Origin: Nitrosopumilus sp.
GTDB lineage: Archaea; Thermoproteota; Nitrososphaeria; Nitrososphaerales; Nitrosopumilaceae
Length of the DNA stretch: 64,000 nucleotides
Direction of reading: 5' to 3'
Assembly (NCBI GenBank): GCA_965218695.1
Contig: OZ244651.1
Location: forward strand, 1,952,001 to 2,016,000
The translations under genes were made by a program, and so were the position numbers. This document shows, one piece after another, positions 45,490 to 55,207 of the stretch (the stretch's first letter is position 1; each line of letters opens with the position of its first letter). The notes under the pieces were generated by a model. It was not told the origin of the DNA and did not search any database. It saw only the letters and a program-made list of their open reading frames with translations.

Positions 45490-46026
45490 TCAGTACAGTG
45501 GGGCACGAAGGCCGTCCTCTGCAACCAAGGTTATCAGGGCGTATTCGATGTATGCTCCTGCCAGAAGCAGCCCCAAGGCAGCCCCAATCTCTATCAGTGT
45601 CAGTTTAAGGTGTTTGGAAAGGCCGGTTCTCTTAACGATCGCCAGTATTAGAATAAAGCTTCTGGATACTCCAAGGGTGTATGCAACCACCTCCATCAGC
45701 CCAAACGGGGTAAGAAACAGTATGGACAGCGGGGAGACTCCTGCAAGTTGGGGGGTTGTGGAGGCGATTGCTGCAAAAGCAAATCCGGTGGACCATGCAG
45801 AGAACATTCCCCAGCCCAGCCCAAACCCGGGAATAAACATGGGCAGGGCTATGGTTGCATTGTGCTGGAAGATGCCAAACGCATCAATGCCCTCAATAAG
45901 ATCCCTGAATTCGTTCATGAATGTGTCTGCCTCCTCTGGACTTACCACGGTCATTGAGCCAATCTGATATATGGCAACAAAGGCTCCAAGAGATGCAAAA
46001 AATACAATTATCCGGGTACCGTCCAT
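45490..46026 (-). CDS. SpoIIM-family membrane protein
   Basis: IFQHN..MFIPG..PFGLME..AYIE. Confidence 0.75.
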   Translation of the reverse strand: MDGTRIIVFFASLGAFVAIYQIGSMTVVSPEEADTFMNEFRDLIEGIDAFGIFQHNATIALPMFIPGFGLGWGMFSAWSTGFAFAAIASTTPQLAGVSPLSILFLTPFGLMEVVAYTLGVSRSFILILAIVKRTGLSKHLKLTLIEIGAALGLLLAGAYIEYALITLVAEDGLRAPLY

Positions 46027-46186
46027 GTTGGGTTGGTTTTGCGATGGTATTTGAGGGTTGAGAGGTGTTAGTGTTGGGCCACGCATGTGGGGGTTTTCCT
46101 GCTTGGGTTAGTGCTTTTTCATTCTTTTGGCAAACATCAGTGTTGCGGGTGCGCGGCTCTGCATGCAGATTTAATTAAACCAGAGT

Positions 46187-47647
46187 ATGTTTGTTGGTGT
46201 GAATAGGGAGATCGCCTTTGTACTCAACTATGCGTTAAGCAAGGGTGTTCAGATTCACCCAGACGCCTTTAAGATTCTGACAGGGATAGATGGCGGGAGG
46301 CTTGAGAGGATCATCAAGGGAATAGTCAAGGAGAAGGCCAGGCAGGGGCAGTTTCAGATCAACAGGAGTGATTTGGAGGACTATCTTGGAATTAGTGAGG
46401 ATCCGTCGTTGCGGGGGGAGGTCAGGGTACAGTCTGACCCTACAGGCAGTGTTGCCACTGGGGAGGGGGTTAGTGGGTATAATGCCCTGTTTGCCAGTAG
46501 GTTCAACAAGTTAAAACAGATAATCTCCATGAGGCCAGAGGCCAGAATGCTCAAGACGGTTGCAGCAGCCAAGTCCCTTAAATCCGCAAAGCCCGGCGAC
46601 GATATCTATGTCTGTGGTTTGGTGTCTGAAAAGAACGTCAACAGGAATAGGATGGTTTTGGTTTTGGAGGATCCGACCGGAAATATTAGTGTGACGGTGT
46701 ATGACAACGAACTGCAAAAGACTGCAGACACCCTCTTGTCGGATCAGTTTATCATGGTCAGGATCGGTCTGGGGAAAACCGGTTTTGCTATGAGGGATTT
46801 GATCTTTCCAGACATTCCAGACCACGCCCCAAACAAGGCCGAGAGTGATGTTTACGCGGTGTTTCTCTCGGATCTCCATGTAGGAAGTAAGTATTTCATG
46901 GAAGAGGAGTTTGTGCGGTTCGTCTCTTGGCTTTCAAGCCCGGATCCGGTGGCAAGAAAGGTTCGTTTTGTTTTGATTGCCGGGGACATAGTAGACGGTG
47001 TGGGAATATATCCAAACCAAGACAGGGAGTTGGTCTGCCAGACCATTGAAGAACAGCTTGCAATGGTCGAGGGTGTAATAGACAGGATTCCCAAAAACAT
47101 TAAGGTTGTAATCATGCCCGGGAACCACGATCCCGGCAGGAGGGCGCTGCCCCAGCCGGCAATTCCGCAGAAATACAACTCTGGTCTGTGGGAGAGGGAT
47201 AATGTCATAATGGTGGGCAACCCGGCGGTGGTCTCATTAAACGGGGTAAGGGTTCTGATGTTTCACGGGCAAAGTATTGATGATATTGTAAAGACCACGC
47301 CTGGTCTCAGTTACGACAAACCTGCAAAGGTAATGAAGCACCTACTCAAGGCGAGGCATTTAAGTCCAATTTATGGTAGCCAGACGCCGATAGCGCCGGA
47401 GGTGGAGGATTTCATGGTAATAGAGGATGTGCCGGACATATTCCACGCAGGACACGTTCATAGGGCAGAGTTGGATATGTACAGGGGGGTCCTGGTTATC
47501 AATTCCGGTTGTTGGCAGAGACAGACCCCTTTCCAGACCAGTGTTGGAATAACCCCCAACCCATGTATAGCATTCATAGTCAACCTGAAGACGTTTCGGG
47601 TACTCATGAGTGATTATATGAATTCAGATGATGTCGTGGAGGGTTAG
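46187..47647 (+). CDS. polD1: DNA polymerase D small subunit (DP1)
   Basis: OB fold LEDPTG; SDLHVGS, AGDIVDG, PGNHD, FHG, HAGHVH. Confidence 0.93.
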   Translation: MFVGVNREIAFVLNYALSKGVQIHPDAFKILTGIDGGRLERIIKGIVKEKARQGQFQINRSDLEDYLGISEDPSLRGEVRVQSDPTGSVATGEGVSGYNALFASRFNKLKQIISMRPEARMLKTVAAAKSLKSAKPGDDIYVCGLVSEKNVNRNRMVLVLEDPTGNISVTVYDNELQKTADTLLSDQFIMVRIGLGKTGFAMRDLIFPDIPDHAPNKAESDVYAVFLSDLHVGSKYFMEEEFVRFVSWLSSPDPVARKVRFVLIAGDIVDGVGIYPNQDRELVCQTIEEQLAMVEGVIDRIPKNIKVVIMPGNHDPGRRALPQPAIPQKYNSGLWERDNVIMVGNPAVVSLNGVRVLMFHGQSIDDIVKTTPGLSYDKPAKVMKHLLKARHLSPIYGSQTPIAPEVEDFMVIEDVPDIFHAGHVHRAELDMYRGVLVINSGCWQRQTPFQTSVGITPNPCIAFIVNLKTFRVLMSDYMNSDDVVEG

Positions 47648-48835
47648 GTCGTCTTGGAACGCCTTTTTTACCATCTCAGACGAGACCGTAATTTTGTATT
47701 TTTTTGTCCTTCCATGAATTCCTTGGTGGATCAGCCTGCCTGAGATAATCCCAGACAGTTCAATCTCGCTTAACATTTGGGTAATTCGTCTCTGGGTGAG
47801 GTTGTCCCTCCCGACGACCTTGCAGAGGCTCTTGTAGGAGGCGTATATCTCTCCGGTACTTGATCCGTTTGCCTTTATTATTGCCAGAATTAGTAGTTTT
47901 TCGTGTAGTGGGTAGGATCTGAGTGATGCCTCCTCCTTGTTTTCCTCTATTTTTTGGGAGGCCTCCCGGACATTGTCTGCCGTTACGTGGCCGGACTGTC
48001 GCCGTTCTGCAATCTCGCCGGCCACACGAATCAGATCTATCGCCCTTCTAGCATCCCCGTGTTCGCTTCCCGCAAGAGCGGCGCACAGGTTTAGTGCAGA
48101 TTCCTCAACAGATCCGGTCACAAATGCCTTGTTGATTCTCTCCTGAAGGATTTTTTTGATTTGTTCTGTGTTGTAGTTGGGAAAGACGATCTCCTCCTCC
48201 CCCAAGCTGCTGATTACTCTGGGATCCAGTTTCTCTTTAAATGTTAGATCGTTTGAGATGCCTACTATTGTAAGGAACCCCATGCCCAGTCTCTCGTTTG
48301 CCCTGGTAAGTTGGTATAAGATGTCTTTTTTGGTTTTTGTGACTAGTTGTGCTAGGTAGTCAATCTCATCTATTACAAATATTGTGTTAAGTTTATCGTG
48401 GTTAATTTTGTTTAGTAGTCTTTTAAATACCTCGCTAATTGCAAGGCCGGTGATTGGTAGTTCCCGTTCCTCAATACCAAGCTGCCTGCCCATATTTACC
48501 AACAACCCGTAAAGTGTGGTCTCTTCCTTAGCATTGGAGTAGATTAGTTTGATTGGAAAGTTTGATTTTTCTACCCTGTCCTGAATCTTTGATATCACTT
48601 TCTTAACCACCAGTGTTTTGCCGGTGCCTGGTTTGCCATACACCAAGAGGTTTGACGGCCTTGATTGTTTCAGGATTGGGAGTAGTGATTGGGTAACTGT
48701 CTCCTGTTCTGCATCCCTATGAAGAATGGTGTCTGGTATGTATGTGAGGTGGAGTATGTCTCTGTTCTGAATGATCACGTCTCCAGACTCGGCTGCGTCA
48801 AGCAACCTATCTATCGGATCAGACAACCCACACAC
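47624..48835 (-). CDS. cdc6: Orc1/Cdc6 replication initiator
   Basis: GKPGTGKT, IDEID, LDPRVISSL, HGDARRA, C-terminal wHTH GRTK. Confidence 0.95.
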   Translation of the reverse strand: MCGLSDPIDRLLDAAESGDVIIQNRDILHLTYIPDTILHRDAEQETVTQSLLPILKQSRPSNLLVYGKPGTGKTLVVKKVISKIQDRVEKSNFPIKLIYSNAKEETTLYGLLVNMGRQLGIEERELPITGLAISEVFKRLLNKINHDKLNTIFVIDEIDYLAQLVTKTKKDILYQLTRANERLGMGFLTIVGISNDLTFKEKLDPRVISSLGEEEIVFPNYNTEQIKKILQERINKAFVTGSVEESALNLCAALAGSEHGDARRAIDLIRVAGEIAERRQSGHVTADNVREASQKIEENKEEASLRSYPLHEKLLILAIIKANGSSTGEIYASYKSLCKVVGRDNLTQRRITQMLSEIELSGIISGRLIHQGIHGRTKKYKITVSSEMVKKAFQDDLTLHDII

Positions 48836-48839
48836 CTAT

Positions 48840-49280
48840 GTTTCCTGTCAACACCATCTAACCTATCTCCTTTCTGGTTTAGGGTGGAATGGTTATTCTA
48901 GTTAAGTTTGTAATTAATTATTTTTGCTTTAAAAAAAATTAAGAAAAGAGCAGAGTGGAAATACAGGTGTGTGGGTTGCCGTGGGCCTGCAGTTAACATT
49001 GTGTTGGATGTTTGTTAAGAAACACACCAAAAAGGGTGTTTCTGACCCCTTCATTTCCACTCCAGGCGTTAAGATGGGTCTTAACAGGGTTAACATGTGG
49101 TTTCTGACCCCTTCATTTCCACTCCAGTCACAAACAGGGCAGTTTTCCATCAACCACACTCACCAACGCGTTAACAACACCAACCACCCAGAACCCCCTA
49201 GGCAGTCAATGTTAACAAACCAATTCATTAACAAATTTTAAAGGATCCATTAATCTGTTAACGGCAGATCCATATGATCC
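48840..49280. other. Probable chromosomal replication origin (oriC)
   Basis: Directly upstream of cdc6; identical 28-bp ORB repeats GTTTCTGACCCCTTCATTTCCACTCCAG at 49038-65 and 49100-27; inverted ORB-like CAGAGTGGAAATACAGG at 48951; AT-rich tract about 48900-48947. Confidence 0.88.
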
Positions 49281-49281
49281 C

Positions 49282-49662
49282 ATGACAAGGAAACGGATCC
49301 GGATAGACATGGAGGACTCTGACGGGGCCAAATATGACATAAAACTGGAAGGAAACGTCACCCGAGAGAAAATTCTGAAGATCTTTGAGATGATGGATCT
49401 GATGAACATCGAGGAGGAACCAAAAACACCCAACATAGACTCAACGGGATCAAAGATCTGGCACACTGTGGATAAATTCTTCCCTACAGGAAATTTTACC
49501 TCCACAAACATACTTGAAAAGTATGAAGACGAGTTCAACGAACCAATCAAACTAAGCATAATATCCACATACCTATCACGGTTCTCATCAAAAGGGAAGA
49601 TCGGCAGAACCAGAACCGGCCGGGAATGGATCTACCAAACCACAAAGATCACCCAAAAATAG
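49282..49662 (+). CDS. Origin-adjacent protein with predicted C-terminal winged helix
   Basis: FTSTNI..IKLSIISTYLSRF..G.I.R.R.GREWIY resembles a wHTH. Confidence 0.75.
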   Translation: MTRKRIRIDMEDSDGAKYDIKLEGNVTREKILKIFEMMDLMNIEEEPKTPNIDSTGSKIWHTVDKFFPTGNFTSTNILEKYEDEFNEPIKLSIISTYLSRFSSKGKIGRTRTGREWIYQTTKITQK

Positions 49663-49943
49663 GCAACCCCTACCCCACACAAACTTACTGCGGCACTGCA
49701 TTCTGATGGTTGCGTGTGGGTGTTGTGAGATTAAGAGGATCCAAGGCCACAAACCCACACACACCCAAGACCAACACGTTAATGACGATTTATGGTCTTG
49801 GCCGTGTGACGTTTCAACCACACACAACACACGCCCCAAACACACCATTCATGGTCCAAACCAACCCGTTGTGGAACCGGCACACACCCTATTACACGAA
49901 CGCCCTGTTCGTGTTGGAGACATTCTACAGGAACCACCCCACA

Positions 49944-50540
49944 CTATATTTTGATCCTTGTCATACCCTTCTCCGTTATGGAGTACGTGTATGGTTTTGA
50001 TTCCATATTTCTCACCACACATCCCTCATCATACAACCTCTTCATTAACCGTGACGTGTGTTCCCTGCTCTTTTTTAACATGGTTTGTATATCACGTGAC
50101 GTCATTGGGTTATTTGTGATTAAATGCAACACATAATCTGTAGAGTTAAGGTGTTTGTTGGTGGTTTCTGGTAATGTAGCAACCTCTGGGCTGGTTGTGG
50201 TTTCTGGTTGCTGTGGTGGTTGTGTTTTGTTTGGCGTGGTTCTTGTTCCTTCCCCCCCCCAACTGGTGTGTGGCCGCACCGAAACCTGTTCCTGGACACC
50301 ACTTTTTACACCCTGCACACCCAAACCATCCAAACGTATTTTCATGTCTATTATCTGCCTCTCATAATACCTGAGCAGCTCCGAACGTGCGTCATCATCG
50401 GTCTTGTTTTTAGATTTGAAGTGTGCATTGATGATATAATACACATACACGCCCCCCACACCCACCAAAAACGCAACAATCACACTAAGAATCACCCCCA
50501 AATTCGGAATCTCTACCAACATCACAATATCTGCAACCAC
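49944..50540 (-). CDS. Predicted membrane-anchored winged-helix DNA-binding protein
   Basis: N-terminal TM, short coiled coil, P/T/Q linker, wHTH MTSRDIQ..SREHTSRLMKRLYDEG..KPYTYSITEKG. Confidence 0.78.
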   Translation of the reverse strand: MVADIVMLVEIPNLGVILSVIVAFLVGVGGVYVYYIINAHFKSKNKTDDDARSELLRYYERQIIDMKIRLDGLGVQGVKSGVQEQVSVRPHTSWGGEGTRTTPNKTQPPQQPETTTSPEVATLPETTNKHLNSTDYVLHLITNNPMTSRDIQTMLKKSREHTSRLMKRLYDEGCVVRNMESKPYTYSITEKGMTRIKI

Positions 50541-50770
50541 ACTGTGATTTATTGTAACCGAATTAGATGATTTTACATTTTACGTTGACAAATTACACAC
50601 ATGGTCACACCTAACCCCAACAAAACAACCCCAACAACCAGACCATCACAACCTAACCATTTGCCGGATCAGCTTTTCTATCACATCAACCACCTCCTTC
50701 TCCTTTTCTGGTAACACATCACCATCTTTTATCACACTAACCTGATCTGAAATTTGTAAAATCACATCAA
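50479..50770. repeat. Dense array of ATCACA motifs
   Basis: ATCACA at 50479, 50521, 50645, 50680, 50731, 50761; TGTGAT at 50543; GTCACA at 50604. Confidence 0.7.
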
Positions 50771-51008
50771 TGTTATCAGGCACAAGTATGCCCAATCCGC
50801 GCAAAAGCACCACCGTGTAAAATAACGCAACCATCTTGTCTCTTGACTGACCCACCTGTCTATAGTATGCGCCTTTGGTGATTGCAAACTGCGCACGCTG
50901 CAGATCCATCTGATTTGAAATAATTTCAATTTGTCGTTCTGTAAACAAAGATTTTTTAATAATATGACGAATAACGTTGTTAAAACTGGATTGATTAGAA
51001 TCGGCCAT
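50646..51008 (-). CDS. Hypothetical protein, possible HTH
   Basis: SLFTERQIEII..ITKGAYYRQVGQSR. Confidence 0.7.
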   Translation of the reverse strand: MADSNQSSFNNVIRHIIKKSLFTERQIEIISNQMDLQRAQFAITKGAYYRQVGQSRDKMVALFYTVVLLRGLGILVPDNIDVILQISDQVSVIKDGDVLPEKEKEVVDVIEKLIRQMVRL

Positions 51009-51072
51009 AGCTATACAAATCTGTATGCAACACCACAATTAAACTTTAAAGCGTCATCTACAAACCAACCAC

Positions 51073-51837
51073 ATGGCGGGCAGAGTGGAGTCATTCCTAA
51101 GATCCGAACTAAGGGAGAAGGACACACTGCTCTTTGTACTGATAGACTCTGAGACATCAGATCTGGAGGCGTCTGCCAGATTGGCAGTTGATGTGGAGAA
51201 GATCGGAGCATCTGCAATCCTAGTTGGTGGTTCCTCCATTGCAGACCAGATGGGGATGGATGGTGTTGTTGCAGGAATAAAGAAGCGGGTTAAGATTCCC
51301 ATTATACTGTTCCCCGGTAACATAACTGGGGTCGTGCCTAGTGCAGACGCGATCCTGTTCAGCTCACTTATGAATTCTGAAAACCCATACTTTATTACAC
51401 AGGCCCAGGCGTTGGGAGCCCCAACCGTTGCCAGGTTTGGTTTGGAACCGCTACCCACAGCATATCTGGTGATAGGAGATGGAACATCTGCGTGGTTTGT
51501 CGGCTCTGCTCGAGGCATACCGTTTAACAAACCCAAAATAGCCGCCGCGTATGCTCTGGCAGCCAAGTTTCTGGGCATGAGGTTTGTGTACCTTGAGGCA
51601 GGCTCGGGAGCCAAAACCAACGTGACGCCCGAGATGGTCAGGACGGTTAGGATGACGTTCGATGGTTTTTTGATTGTTGGGGGAGGTATCAGAGACGCTG
51701 AAACCGCCAAAAGCTTGGCAAAGGCAGGCGCAGACGCCTTGGTTATTGGAACATTTCTTGAACAGGGCGGCCGTCTGGACAAGCTTCGGGGGATGGTAGA
51801 TGCCATCCAAAGCAGGGCACAACCACACCATGTCTGA
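51073..51837 (+). CDS. Geranylgeranylglyceryl phosphate synthase
   Basis: LVGGS, ILFPG, YLEAGSG, VGGGIR, VIGT. Confidence 0.92.
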   Translation: MAGRVESFLRSELREKDTLLFVLIDSETSDLEASARLAVDVEKIGASAILVGGSSIADQMGMDGVVAGIKKRVKIPIILFPGNITGVVPSADAILFSSLMNSENPYFITQAQALGAPTVARFGLEPLPTAYLVIGDGTSAWFVGSARGIPFNKPKIAAAYALAAKFLGMRFVYLEAGSGAKTNVTPEMVRTVRMTFDGFLIVGGGIRDAETAKSLAKAGADALVIGTFLEQGGRLDKLRGMVDAIQSRAQPHHV

Positions 51838-54800
51838 AAACACATCAATCTCCAGAATCAGGGGCATCCCAATGCCCGAACACTATCGCAAGTACTACTC
51901 GGATCTCTCGACTAGGACATATACAATATTCGAAAAGGCCGCAGAGGCAAAATCCCACCTTGTTGACTCTTCTGGGATGGTAGAACCAAAAATAGCATTT
52001 GATCTGGCTGATCGTGTAGCAAAGATGCACGACATTGACATTGCCGACCCACTCAGGAAGCTGTTGCAAACAAACGGCAAGGAGATGTCGGCACTTATAC
52101 TGTCTGAGAGGATCGCCCTTGGTAAGTACTCACCTCTAGATGCCACCCTTGAAGAGAAACTCGACCTTGCCGTACGCGTGGGCCTTGCAATTGTGACGGA
52201 GGGGGTAACGATTGCTCCCCTTCAAGGAATCAGCGAAGTTACAATTAAGAGAAACAAGGACGGCTCAGAGTACCTGTCGGTATCGATAGCCGGACCAATG
52301 CGTTCTGCGGGGGGAACCGAATCTGCCGTAACAATGTTGATTGCAGACCATGTGCGGAAAAAGGCCGGACTGTCCAAATTTCAGGCCAACTCGTTTGATG
52401 ACGAAACAGGCAGGTTTGTAGAGGAGCTGAGGATATATGAGCGGGAGGCAAGCAGTTTTCAGTTTCATGTGTTGGATCGGGACATCGAGCACGTCATATT
52501 AAACCTGCCAGTAGAACTTGACGGGGTTGACACTGATCCCTTTGAGGTGGTCAACCACAAATCCATGACCCGTATTAAGACTAATCGGGTGAGGGGCGGC
52601 GCCCTGCGCGTGTTAAACGACGGACTGATCGGCAGATCCAAGAAACTCCTTAAAAGAATAGAGCTGTACAAGTTGGATGGCTGGGAATGGCTTAAGGATC
52701 TCGAGGGCGCAGTCCAGACAGACAACAACCAAGAGGGTGCCGCCACAAAAAGAATGCGCGAGGTGATTGCAGGAAGGTCAGTACTGTCAATGTCCAACAA
52801 ACCCGGAGGGTTCCGTCTCAGGTATGGACGCGCCTGCAATACTGGCTTTGCCGCAATCGGGATACACCCTGTAATAGCAGAAATTCTAAACCACGCCATC
52901 GTAGTGGGGACGCAAATCAAAACTGACATTCCTGGAAAGGGAGCAACGGTTGCCTTTGTAGACTCCATTGAGGCTCCGACAGTACTACTCAACAACGGCA
53001 GCGTCGTCAAGATCCGGGATCTGGAGCACGGAACCAAGATAAAAAACGAGATTAAGAGAATACTACACCTTGGAGACATCCTCATATCCTTTGGTGATTT
53101 TCTTGAGAACAACGCACAACTGGTTCCATCCGGGTACGTTGAGGAGTTCTGGACGGAGGAGCTGAGGCACAGGATTGAGGCACAGGATCCTGACCGTCAG
53201 AGCATGATGCAGTTTCTCCTCAGGGCCCCGACCGTACACGAGGCAATAAAGACATCCCTTGAGTGTGGCATATCACTGCACCCCAGTTTCTTGTACTTCT
53301 GGGATCTGATCTCAACCGGGGAACTGAGAGAACTCCTTAAACCTCTGGCATTAGACGAATCCGCAATCCGATACCCCTTGGGAACAAAACGAACTCTTGA
53401 GATGTTGGGGGTACCGCACAGGCTTGACGGGGAGAATGTGGTTTTAGAGGGCACGGAGGCCACAGTGTTCCACCATCTGTTGTTCCAGAAGAAGCCGGAC
53501 GTTGATAGAGATTCGGTTCCTGAGATACTGTCCAATTCTTCAGGAATCCAAATACGGGCCAAATCCTCATGCTCCGTAGGTGTCCGTATAGGGAGGCCTG
53601 AAAAGGCCGCCGCAAGGCAGATGAAGCCTCCAACACACATGCTTTTTCCGGTAGGCGATAAAGGGGGACCCACTAGGGATCTACTTCGGGCCTCAAGAAA
53701 CGGGAACTTCTTTACCAACATCTCTAACAGACGTTGCACCGGATGCGGCCAGCTCTCGATTGGCATCAAGTGCTCTATATGTGGTACCAAGACTGCCGTT
53801 ACATACTACTGCCCAAACTGCAGGAATGTAGTGGACGGCCCGGACTGCCCAAACTGCAAACGTGCGGCTCAGACCCACTCCCATAAGGAGTTTCCGTTGA
53901 AGGCAAGACTGATGCTTGCACAGGAAAGAATGAAGATACGTGCCCGTGAACCCCTCAAGGGTGTCAAGGATTTGATTGGGCAGGATCGAATTGCCGAACC
54001 CATTGAGAAGGGGCTGGCGCGCCAGAGCTTTGGGCTTACCGTCTTCAAGGACGGAACCGTGCGGTTTGACGCCACGAACTCCCCGCTTACCCAATTCAAA
54101 CCATCCTGGGTCGGAACCTCCATTGAGAGGCTGAAAGAACTTGGATACTCCTGTGACGTGGACGGGGAGCCGTTGAGTAGTTCCGACCAGATCCTTGAAC
54201 TCCGTATGCAGGACGTAATACTTCCATACGAAAGTGGAAGCTATCTGGTCTTGGTCACCAAATACATTGACGCCCTCTTTGAGAAATTCTATGAAACCGA
54301 GCCATTCTACAACGTTAAGGATCTGCATGATCTTGTAGGCCATCTGGTGATAGGGCTGGCACCACACACCTCAGTTGGGATAGTGGGGCGCATCATTGGA
54401 TTTACCAGCACCAACGTGTGTTTTGGAACGCCCAACTGGCATTCTGCCAAGAGACGGGACGCTGATGGGGATGCCGACTCTGTCATGTTGTTGACAGACG
54501 CCCTACTCAATTTTTCAAGACTGTTTCTATCTGATCGGATAGGGGGGCTCATGGACGCGCCGCTACTCATCCAGCCCCTAGTTCTGCCCCACGAATCCCA
54601 GCCGCAGGCACACAACCTTGAGGTGATAAGGTCGTTGCCACTGGAATTCTTCGAGTCCACCCTCAAATGTACCCGTGCCTCGGATGTCTCGTCAATAGAG
54701 ATTATAAAGTCCCGCCTGGATACTGAGAGGCAGTTCTGTGATTATTTTTTTACCCACGCCACCTCATCCCTGATTACATCAAAGACGCGTAGTGCCTACT

Positions 54801-55207
54801 CGACTCTTGGATCCATGCTTGACAAGTTTGACATGCAGATAAGAAACGCCGAGTTGATTGATGCCGTGGATACAACCGAGATCGTCTCAAACGTCATATC
54901 CACCCACTTTGTTCCTGACATAGTAGGAAACCTCAGATCGTACGCCAAACAAAAATTCAGATGCACGGCATGTGGGCTTTCGTATCGGCGCGTACCACTT
55001 ACCAAGACATGCCAGTGCGGCAACGAACTGCTTCCCACCATTACAAAAGCCTCAATTGAAAAGTATCTAAAACTTGCAAAGAGGCTGGTTACCACATATG
55101 ATGTGGGCAGGTATCAGAAGGGGAGGATACATGCACTCTCAGACGAGATTGAACTGGTATTTGGGAAGAGCCGTGGGGATCAGTCCCTTCTTACCGATTA
55201 CTCCTAA
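51830..55207 (+). CDS. polD2: DNA polymerase D large subunit (DP2), no intein apparent
   Basis: AGPMRSAGGT, GGFRLRYGR, FKDGTVRFD, AKRRDADGDAD, GGLMDAPL, Cys clusters. Confidence 0.96.
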   Translation: MSENTSISRIRGIPMPEHYRKYYSDLSTRTYTIFEKAAEAKSHLVDSSGMVEPKIAFDLADRVAKMHDIDIADPLRKLLQTNGKEMSALILSERIALGKYSPLDATLEEKLDLAVRVGLAIVTEGVTIAPLQGISEVTIKRNKDGSEYLSVSIAGPMRSAGGTESAVTMLIADHVRKKAGLSKFQANSFDDETGRFVEELRIYEREASSFQFHVLDRDIEHVILNLPVELDGVDTDPFEVVNHKSMTRIKTNRVRGGALRVLNDGLIGRSKKLLKRIELYKLDGWEWLKDLEGAVQTDNNQEGAATKRMREVIAGRSVLSMSNKPGGFRLRYGRACNTGFAAIGIHPVIAEILNHAIVVGTQIKTDIPGKGATVAFVDSIEAPTVLLNNGSVVKIRDLEHGTKIKNEIKRILHLGDILISFGDFLENNAQLVPSGYVEEFWTEELRHRIEAQDPDRQSMMQFLLRAPTVHEAIKTSLECGISLHPSFLYFWDLISTGELRELLKPLALDESAIRYPLGTKRTLEMLGVPHRLDGENVVLEGTEATVFHHLLFQKKPDVDRDSVPEILSNSSGIQIRAKSSCSVGVRIGRPEKAAARQMKPPTHMLFPVGDKGGPTRDLLRASRNGNFFTNISNRRCTGCGQLSIGIKCSICGTKTAVTYYCPNCRNVVDGPDCPNCKRAAQTHSHKEFPLKARLMLAQERMKIRAREPLKGVKDLIGQDRIAEPIEKGLARQSFGLTVFKDGTVRFDATNSPLTQFKPSWVGTSIERLKELGYSCDVDGEPLSSSDQILELRMQDVILPYESGSYLVLVTKYIDALFEKFYETEPFYNVKDLHDLVGHLVIGLAPHTSVGIVGRIIGFTSTNVCFGTPNWHSAKRRDADGDADSVMLLTDALLNFSRLFLSDRIGGLMDAPLLIQPLVLPHESQPQAHNLEVIRSLPLEFFESTLKCTRASDVSSIEIIKSRLDTERQFCDYFFTHATSSLITSKTRSAYSTLGSMLDKFDMQIRNAELIDAVDTTEIVSNVISTHFVPDIVGNLRSYAKQKFRCTACGLSYRRVPLTKTCQCGNELLPTITKASIEKYLKLAKRLVTTYDVGRYQKGRIHALSDEIELVFGKSRGDQSLLTDYS

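Follow-up and report, generated by a model that had tools for sequence, protein, structure and literature searches.

Three conserved genes for putative small DNA-binding proteins flank the predicted replication origin of Nitrosopumilus

A stretch of 64,000 nucleotides from a Nitrosopumilus sp. genome (the window; G000:C1:1952001-2016000) contains three short open reading frames (ORFs), referred to as ORF1, ORF2 and ORF3, which lie between the orc1/cdc6 initiator gene with its replication origin (oriC) and the genes encoding GGGP synthase (GGGPS) and the large subunit of PolD. Positions are those of the window unless C1 is given, loci are designated by L and a number, and families outside the order carry the codes f18-f62. 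A first-pass annotation, made from the sequence alone, had placed three genes directly beyond the origin recognition boxes (ORBs) and proposed that they formed an origin-tethering or segregation module. The three ORFs proved to be real and to lie at that place. The trio, the origin and the associated motifs are listed below, with the supporting evidence in brackets.

47624-48835, minus strand: orc1/cdc6 initiator gene, on the far side of the origin and pointing away from ORF1 (Pfam Cdc6_lid 1.1e-23, Cdc6_C 4.8e-20)
48824-49127, unstranded: oriC core with ORB-like elements and an AT-rich stretch (repeats, sequence, GC skew)
48992-49262, unstranded: five GTTAAC(A) boxes among the ORBs, overlapping the ORF1 promoter (motif counts)
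49282-49662, plus strand: ORF1, 126 aa (AlphaFold model, fold and profile matches)
49663-49943, unstranded: CA-rich spacer of 281 nt between the convergent ORF1 and ORF2 (k-mer counts)
49944-50522, minus strand: ORF2, 192 aa, listed as 49944-50540 in a 198-aa frame (hydropathy, HTH_27)
50521-50685, unstranded: array of TGTGAT/ATCACA boxes spanning the gap between ORF3 and ORF2 and the start of ORF2 (8-locus alignment)
50646-51008, minus strand: ORF3, 120 aa (AF2 model, weak fold matches)
51012-51027, unstranded: palindrome TATACA-N4-TGTATG, flanked by the start of ORF3 and the TTTAAAG box (alignment, genome scan)
51045-51051, unstranded: TTTAAAG box common to ORF3 and GGGPS (8-locus alignment)

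The gap of 446 nt between cdc6 and ORF1 holds the anatomy of an archaeal origin. Two exact 28-nt copies of an ORB-type direct repeat were located at 49038-49065 and 49100-49127, together with an inverted partial copy at 48953-48978 and a further inverted arm at 48824-48845, and the ORB-like elements are placed around an AT-rich stretch at ~48900-48950. The cumulative GC skew showed a local maximum at 49019, within a contig-wide skew that was noisy and had its global maximum elsewhere. For N. maritimus, a review and the methods of a genome paper cite the mapping of a single origin adjoining cdc6.

Three motif sets were recognized in the gaps of this locus. Five GTTAAC boxes were found among the ORBs at 48992, 49089, 49170, 49211 and 49257, accounting for all five copies of this hexamer in the window (5/5), and the last three of them either coincide with a TATA-like box and the start of ORF1 or closely precede these. 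The genome contains 158 copies of GTTAAC, of which the origin forms the largest cluster. GTTAACA was the top enriched 7-mer of the cdc6-ORF1 gap in 8/10 genus loci, and its enrichment in the gap over the rest of the locus was seen in 10/10. Outside the genus, the cdc6-ORF1 gap again carried a repeated hexamer, either TTAACA or TTCACA, and this box array persisted across class and phylum distances. The second set consists of TGTGAT/ATCACA boxes at 50521, 50543, 50645 and 50680, 1.4-1.6 kb from the ORBs. They bear out the earlier claim of a motif array over the 5' region of ORF2, as they are real and form invariant columns in 8/8 aligned genus loci (29-48% GC, with the gap ranging from ~28 to 41% GC); the array is the densest 200-nt window for this hexamer on the 2.46-Mb contig. 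The third set lies in the ORF3-GGGPS gap of 64 nt, which was nearly invariant in the eight genus loci of very different GC content. It holds the palindrome TATACAAATCTGTATG, the sole copy at no more than one mismatch in the 2.63-Mb genome, and a genome scan for a regulon of this palindrome returned no other copy. In the same gap, a TTTAAAG box is located 28 nt before the GGGPS ATG, an arrangement which suggests that the GGGPS transcript may be leaderless or have a very short leader and that ORF3 and GGGPS may be under a common bidirectional control region.

To the left and right, the origin and the trio are bordered by the following genes, within a region of 45.5-56.7 kb.

45490-46086, minus strand: SpoIIM-like membrane protein gene (ORF list and Pfam)
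46187-47647, plus strand: PolD small subunit gene (ORF list and Pfam)
51073-51837, plus strand: GGGP synthase (GGGPS) gene (PcrB 1.4e-52)
51800-55207, plus strand: PolD large subunit gene, forming with GGGPS a conserved right-hand flank (synteny)
After the PolD large subunit gene, within 45.5-56.7 kb: serine hydroxymethyltransferase gene (ORF list and Pfam)

The convergent ORFs of the PolD small subunit and cdc6 overlap by 24 nt (47624-47647), and the SpoIIM-like gene (45490-46086) neighbours that of the PolD small subunit in most loci of the genus as well as in some of the distant loci.

The gene order is deeply conserved. Linkage to oriC, cdc6 and PolD, which the first-pass annotation had named as a check, held across the order, the class and much of the phylum. 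The order Cdc6-oriC-ORF1-ORF2-ORF3-GGGPS-PolD large subunit was observed in 20/20 order-level loci, drawn from 13 genus genomes and seven other families of the order; ORF3 was found in three of these only with a broader profile, and in four of the 20 the record ends just past ORF1 and the single-contig genome opens with Cdc6, which lies across the numbering start. At this level, ORF2 was present in 38/41 relatives searched and in 29/29 high-quality genomes. The ORF1 family was single-copy in 136/151 class genomes (a count that takes in one unpublished genome, G164, on which no other result depends) and in 110/111 of the high-quality ones. Named homologues of ORF1-3 come from Nitrosopumilus and Nitrosarchaeum, and a library of 1.84 billion representatives yielded 443 ORF1 clusters at E <= 0.001. 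Among 201 genomes sampled from the phylum, 134 contained ORF1, 106 ORF3 and 133 the PolD large subunit. ORF1 is present in most PolD-bearing families of the phylum, and nine PolD-less families (f28, f35, f37, f42, f43, f46, f47, f51 and f54) were without ORF1 and ORF3, the one exception being a weak ORF3 match in f28.

In a distant set of 34 loci from other orders and classes, 23 had Cdc6 no more than ~1 kb from ORF1, and one further locus had it across the contig start. The full Cdc6-ORF1-ORF2-ORF3-GGGPS-PolD order recurred outside the class in several coded families, for example in L037 and L047 and, mirrored, in L046. In L057 and L061, which belong to one family, ORF2-ORF3 adjoin GGGPS at a distance of 4.5-6.5 kb from oriC, and a reading of the coordinate tables placed GGGPS beside ORF3 in most loci with ORF3. 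The trio is best read as an old, vertically inherited gene set. In the coded family f22 (L066, L183-L185), ORF1 and cdc6 were found on the same strand.

ORF1 had been described as a protein of 126 aa with a winged helix-turn-helix (wHTH)-like C-terminus, and this description stood. Its AlphaFold model, built from a 14-row alignment (mean pLDDT 73.7), contains one winged helix only, at residues 55-120 (49444-49641; pLDDT ~85-91), preceded by a low-confidence beta-hairpin and helix at residues 4-41 (49291-49404). The WhiP/Cdt1-like initiators have tandem winged helices related to Cdt1. Comparison of the model by VIA-align gave 61 chains with Z >= 8, all of them winged helices, with a Fur protein as the best match (Z 11.6, rmsd 2.0, 70 residues aligned); Foldseek returned no match for ORF1 at E <= 0.001. 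Penicillinase_R (PF03965) was matched by 33/46 ORF1 family members at E <= 0.1, with 2.6e-8 as the best value, and ORF1 of the window itself scored 15.3 bits, below the gathering score of 22.6. The ORF1 winged helix is most like that of the BlaI/MecI/CopY repressors of this family (MecI, Z 8.7), but it is C-terminal in ORF1 and N-terminal in BlaI according to the aligned ranges. Within the genus, the identity of ORF1 was 77-93%, compared with 73-95% for PolD.

The variation of the boxes was compared with that of ORF1 in a survey of 115 loci, 90 of which had Cdc6 adjoining ORF1. A gap was assigned to a box type when it had at least 4 copies of one variant and at least twice as many as of the other, a rule set before the survey was enlarged, and the residue scored was the ORF1 position aligned with I93 of the window, at the start of the recognition helix. 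As a result, 47 of the 90 cdc6-ORF1 gaps were TTAACA-type and 23 were TTCACA-type. The residue was other than T in 45/47 TTAACA-type loci and was T in 22/23 TTCACA-type loci, so that the box variant tracked the ORF1 residue in 67/70 classifiable loci. At least five changes of box type were counted on the Cdc6 tree. Resting on about five evolutionary changes, the association is no more than a lead that ORF1 reads the boxes.

ORF2 had been given as a protein of 198 aa. This frame exists, but the start is assigned to the ATG at 50522 (MLVEIP...), giving 192 aa, because 13/13 other alignment rows share this start and the DNA around it is conserved. The layout proposed for it in the first-pass annotation, a transmembrane (TM) helix, a coiled coil, a P/T/Q linker and a wHTH, was recovered apart from the coiled coil. 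The membrane helix spans residues 9-30 (50433-50498), with a Kyte-Doolittle 19-residue maximum of 2.47 at residues 9-27, and is followed by KSKNK; by hydropathy and sequence ORF2 is a predicted single-pass membrane protein, with the positive residues on the cytoplasmic side. A conserved helix segment at residues 44-70 (50313-50393) leads to a linker at residues 76-128 (50142-50297), in which 12 T, 7 P, 5 Q and 5 E were counted among 53 residues. The proposed coiled coil corresponds to a short conserved segment, for which a crude period-3.5 hydrophobicity test detected no heptad signal (63/200 shuffles scored as high), and distant homologues gave a weak signal. The C-terminal winged helix (49947-50141; residues 134-192 of the 198-aa frame) matched Pfam HTH_27 (PF13463) with 25.7 bits, above the cut-off of 22.2, and PF13463 is precomputed on most listed ORF2 homologues. 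Its recognition helix is strongly conserved, with REH..R..K invariant. The MarR profiles scored below their cut-offs (MarR_2, 22.5 vs 27; MarR, 15.7 vs 24.6). ORF2 therefore resembles the MarR/HTH_27 regulators in a C-terminal domain that passes the HTH_27 cut-off and differs from the MarR family in being without the MarR dimerisation helices, in place of which it has a membrane helix and a long linker. The membrane helix was retained in 14/14 order-level homologues and in 16/22 more distant ones at class or phylum level; it was clearly absent in five of the 22, and a sixth (L050) fell below the threshold, maybe owing to a truncated start.

ORF3 had been described as an HTH-like protein of 120 aa. 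The gene is real, and its start MADSNQ is conserved; the HTH assignment rests on weak matches only. An AF2 model from a 32-row alignment (pLDDT 85.6) shows five helices, comprising a three-helix HTH-like head at residues 15-70 (50799-50966) and a C-terminal helical hairpin (50658-50780). All VIA-align matches were under Z 8: LuxR-type 7vim with Z 6.5 (rmsd 3.4, 59 aligned), 4ldz with Z 5.4 and region 4 of sigma-28, 1rp3, with Z 5.3. Sigma70_r4 was matched weakly by 1/32 ORF3 family members (E 0.039). The ESM Atlas gave a lead for ORF3 at 0.83, Foldseek gave no match at E <= 0.001, and no firm family emerged from Pfam, NCBIfam, PDB sequences or the Atlas.

For the trio as a whole, comparison with NCBIfam gave nothing near any cut-off, profiles of the three families against PDB sequences gave nothing below E 0.04, and the ESM Atlas searches led to 'hypothetical protein' clusters only. 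The score of a complex prediction for ORF2 with ORF3 was 0.00, which carries no weight for or against a complex. A literature search, beyond whose reach most subscription papers lay, found no paper on the ORF1, ORF2 or ORF3 families, and locus tags had no match in papers.

The region between ORF1 and ORF2 varies within the genus. A gene encoding a 53-aa AbrB/MazE-type protein (PF04014, 34.6 bits) was found there in 10/13 genus loci, for example at L015:9198-9359. Neither the window nor the two genomes closest to it (G002 and G018) have this gene; a CA-rich spacer of 260-350 nt occurs there instead, and the same query detected no copy elsewhere in G000. CACAC reached 11 copies per 300 nt in the spacer region, as against 0.86 per kb in the window. 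The spacer could not be aligned even among the three closest genomes, for which reason an RNA gene or a binding array was dropped as its explanation and the decayed site of a lost AbrB-type gene is favoured, though unproven. An Rfam scan of 48700-51200 returned a chance-level miRNA model only (32.5 bits against a gathering score of 140).

The distribution of GTTAAC in the rest of the genome was also inspected. The hexamer is ~3.6-fold under-represented in G000, with 158 copies against ~570 expected from base composition, and its scarcity could result from a restriction-modification system or from general avoidance of palindromes. None of the other clusters in the genome resembled the origin array; one lies inside a tandem protein-coding repeat and two are copies of a TGTTAACTTAGGGTGG repeat. 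A 387-aa tandem-repeat ORF (G000:C1:1036379-1037542; L147 1379-2542, minus strand) is adjoined by a 320-aa ORF and contains four RGRPRKLTTDTAAKPA units, AT-hook-like by eye, together with many PKPKEAPKP units. Two element copies were seen 19 kb apart (G000:C1:1567031-1567111 and 1585966-1586046; L148 and L149), each with three TGTTAACTTAGGGTGG repeats at identical spacing, and may represent a duplicated or mobile element.

Several characterized systems share single features with the trio. The closest functional parallel, by analogy, would be UBP, described as a small non-initiator protein that binds the ucm motif, distinct from the ORBs, in Sulfolobus origins; in that description its authors raise the question of analogous origin proteins in other lineages (PMC12141716). 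The likeness lies in a short origin motif apart from the ORBs. UBP is, however, reported there as a beta-rich strand-swapped saddle with hundreds of sites, restricted to Sulfolobales and Desulfurococcales (PMC12141716), in contrast to the helical and winged-helix models of ORF1 and ORF3. Furthermore, the available part of that description mentions no linkage of the UBP gene to an origin (PMC12141716), whereas the trio adjoins oriC, and no chain named UBP was listed when the ORF1, ORF2 and ORF3 profiles were compared with PDB sequences. The closest genomic parallel is oapABC, the one characterised archaeal cluster of three genes that likewise flanks an origin, which is reported to be conserved and divergent from orc across a haloarchaeal origin (PMC7002104). 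As far as the accessible text goes, the products of oapABC/arvABC, a small GTPase and DUF2073 and Zn-ribbon (DUF2072) proteins without DNA-binding domains, act in the formation of extracellular vesicles and not at the origin (PMC10927574). The trio is not homologous to it, as no GTPase, DUF2073 or DUF2072 appeared in Pfam scans of the trio.

With RicO of Staphylococcus aureus, ORF2 shares, by sequence only, the combination of a DNA-binding domain and a membrane element in one polypeptide. According to the consulted part of its report, RicO acts on origin-proximal sites through sequence-specific DNA binding (bioRxiv 10.64898/2026.03.06.710092). The order of the parts differs, with an N-terminal DNA-binding domain and a C-terminal amphipathic helix in RicO and an N-terminal TM helix and a C-terminal winged helix in ORF2, and so does their standing, the function being shown for RicO. 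SegAB and ParABS, insofar as two reviews cover them (PMC7617429, PMC11381335), supply the logic invoked in the first-pass annotation, in which a DNA-binding protein recognizes specific cis sites near the origin; the difference is that the module is without a Walker-type ATPase partner. Matches to PF13614/PF01656 in the genome were located at C1 51.9 kb, 916 kb, 1506 kb, 2044.9 kb and 2196 kb, none of them near the module at C1 2001-2003 kb, the nearest CbiA-family match being 42 kb away. No ParB/SegB-type family was present among the Pfam and NCBIfam matches of ORF1-3.

Our preferred interpretation, which we hold to be about evenly balanced, is that the trio is a self-regulated, origin-flanking DNA-binding module in which ORF1 acts on the origin boxes. 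The folds and the motifs borne on the promoters point to autoregulated, sequence-specific DNA binders, and the box array that runs through the origin and is kept beside ORF1 over class and phylum makes an origin-accessory or origin-coupled role of ORF1 the best single reading. The three would be small sequence-specific DNA-binding proteins that flank the origin and regulate themselves through motifs on their own promoters. ORF1 most likely binds the TT(A/C)ACA boxes, which are interspersed with the ORBs and cover the ORF1 promoter, and its binding would modulate origin use and/or the transcription of cdc6 and ORF1. ORF2 is predicted to be a single-pass membrane protein with its short N-terminus outside and the lysines after the helix inside, whose cytoplasmic winged helix on a flexible linker most likely recognizes the TGTGAT boxes at the start of the ORF2 gene; by doing so it would hold origin-proximal DNA at the membrane, either as its purpose or as a by-product. 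ORF3, with its HTH-like head and helical hairpin, most likely binds the unique palindrome between ORF3 and GGGPS. The data show the genes, their predicted folds, the membrane helix, the synteny and the conserved, locally unique motifs, whereas we infer the pairing of these proteins with the motifs, as well as any effect on replication.

A number of observations weigh against this interpretation. Which protein binds which motif is guesswork from sequence, and motifs on their own promoters are what any autoregulated transcription factor shows. The haloarchaeal oapABC demonstrates that conserved adjacency to an origin need not mean a function at the origin. In the box survey, 20 of the 90 gaps remained unclassified, three loci (L035, L192 and L201) were discordant, and the coded family f22 combined the T residue with neither TTAACA nor TTCACA boxes. 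The independent box-residue pairs numbered two on well-supported branches and five on all branches, so few that no sign test can reach significance. No Cdc6 was detected within 10 kb of ORF1 in 10/34 distant loci. The co-occurrence with PolD has exceptions as well: f27 and f29 have PolD and ORF3 and no ORF1, f50 has weak ORF1 matches and no PolD, and f32, f33 and f49 are without ORF3. Since this co-occurrence of ORF1 and ORF3 with PolD follows phylogeny, it is not independent evidence of function.

An explanation as ordinary local transcription factors with an incidental adjacency to the origin appears possible, although rather unlikely. ORF2 and ORF3 would then control GGGPS and/or polD, and ORF1 would control cdc6 and itself, with the membrane helix of ORF2 reporting the state of the membrane or holding the factor inactive until release. 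GGGPS catalyses the first committed step of membrane lipid synthesis, and membrane-tethered factors are exemplified by yeast Mga2 and SREBP. Every motif set lies on a promoter, and the near-invariant 64-nt region with its unique palindrome is a divergent promoter region common to ORF3 and GGGPS. ORF3 is beside GGGPS in most loci with ORF3, and it stays with GGGPS away from oriC in L057 and L061. Database names of ORF2 homologues, namely 'MarR family transcriptional regulator' and 'winged helix DNA-binding protein', agree with such a role, for which oapABC also offers a precedent of incidental adjacency. However, the GTTAAC boxes extend throughout the origin beyond the ORF1 promoter, a box array in the cdc6-ORF1 gap persists across class and phylum, ORF1 was judged more conserved than PolD within the genus, and ORF2 is without a sensor domain outside the membrane.

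The origin-anchor reading of the first-pass annotation was retained in its structural part, namely the linkage to oriC, the union of a TM helix and a wHTH in one protein and the conserved motif arrays, and left unsupported in its claim of segregation and tethering; two of the refuting conditions named there, homologues unlinked to oriC and the lack of a predicted TM helix or wHTH, did not apply. In its full form, ORF2, helped by ORF1 and ORF3, would be dedicated to anchoring the origin at the membrane and would position or segregate sister origins in the manner of RicO or of RacA and Noc of Bacillus, members of the class of origin-membrane tethers; on the sequence data we consider this doubtful. 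The architecture speaks for it, since in all 14 order-level and 16 of the 22 distant ORF2 homologues a membrane helix is followed by a flexible linker that carries the DNA-binding domain, as does the location of the ORF2 gene and its candidate TGTGAT array 1.4-1.6 kb from the ORBs, in a trio linked to oriC across the order and beyond. The principle of a tether between origin and membrane is illustrated by bacterial RicO, as far as its preprint was available (bioRxiv 10.64898/2026.03.06.710092), and the portions of two reviews at hand name no segregation system for ammonia oxidisers (PMC7617429, PMC11381335). The segregation claim itself found no support, as no ParA/SegA-type ATPase is encoded in or near the module, five distant ORF2 homologues are clearly devoid of a membrane helix and the origin-flanking oapABC cluster proved to act in vesicle formation. 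Moreover, the array is small (4 sites) and lies on ORF2's own promoter, and in L057 and L061 ORF2-ORF3 are beside GGGPS and 4.5-6.5 kb from oriC.

A mobile source of the trio, either as what is left of an integrated element or as an addiction-type cassette taken up together with the origin, is highly improbable, and this reading was rejected: for such a source the genes are of too great an age, too widely present and too constant in position. In its favour, elements of this kind typically contain small genes for DNA-binding proteins, the cluster of relatives includes an AbrB/MazE-type gene, and a review available in part gives the proposal that archaeal origins arose when extrachromosomal elements were captured. 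Against these points, the trio keeps its order over phylum-level distances, ORF1 is single-copy and almost universal within the class, the ORF lists of the window and the distant loci showed no integrase, toxin or repeat borders, and, strand skew aside, the composition of the trio equals that of its surroundings.

The self-regulated, origin-flanking module has a bolder extension that we regard as quite unlikely, in which the trio is an unrecognised replication-origin apparatus of PolD-bearing Thermoproteota, with ORF1 as a second box-specific factor beside Orc1/Cdc6, a counterpart of UBP, and ORF2 fastening the newly replicated origin region to the membrane. If true, ORF2 would let archaea without a motor position or separate their origins and couple replication to membrane growth via GGGPS. 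To our knowledge, the control of origin firing and chromosome separation are largely unknown in archaea outside Sulfolobus and the haloarchaea. The module brings together three uncharacterised families and three defined motifs within 2.3 kb, is conserved in marine ammonia oxidisers and in PolD-bearing relatives far removed from them, and thereby provides candidates for replication helpers or regulators. Even as mere local regulators, the three proteins would mark out the region that controls cdc6, polD and the first gene of lipid synthesis in globally abundant nitrifiers.

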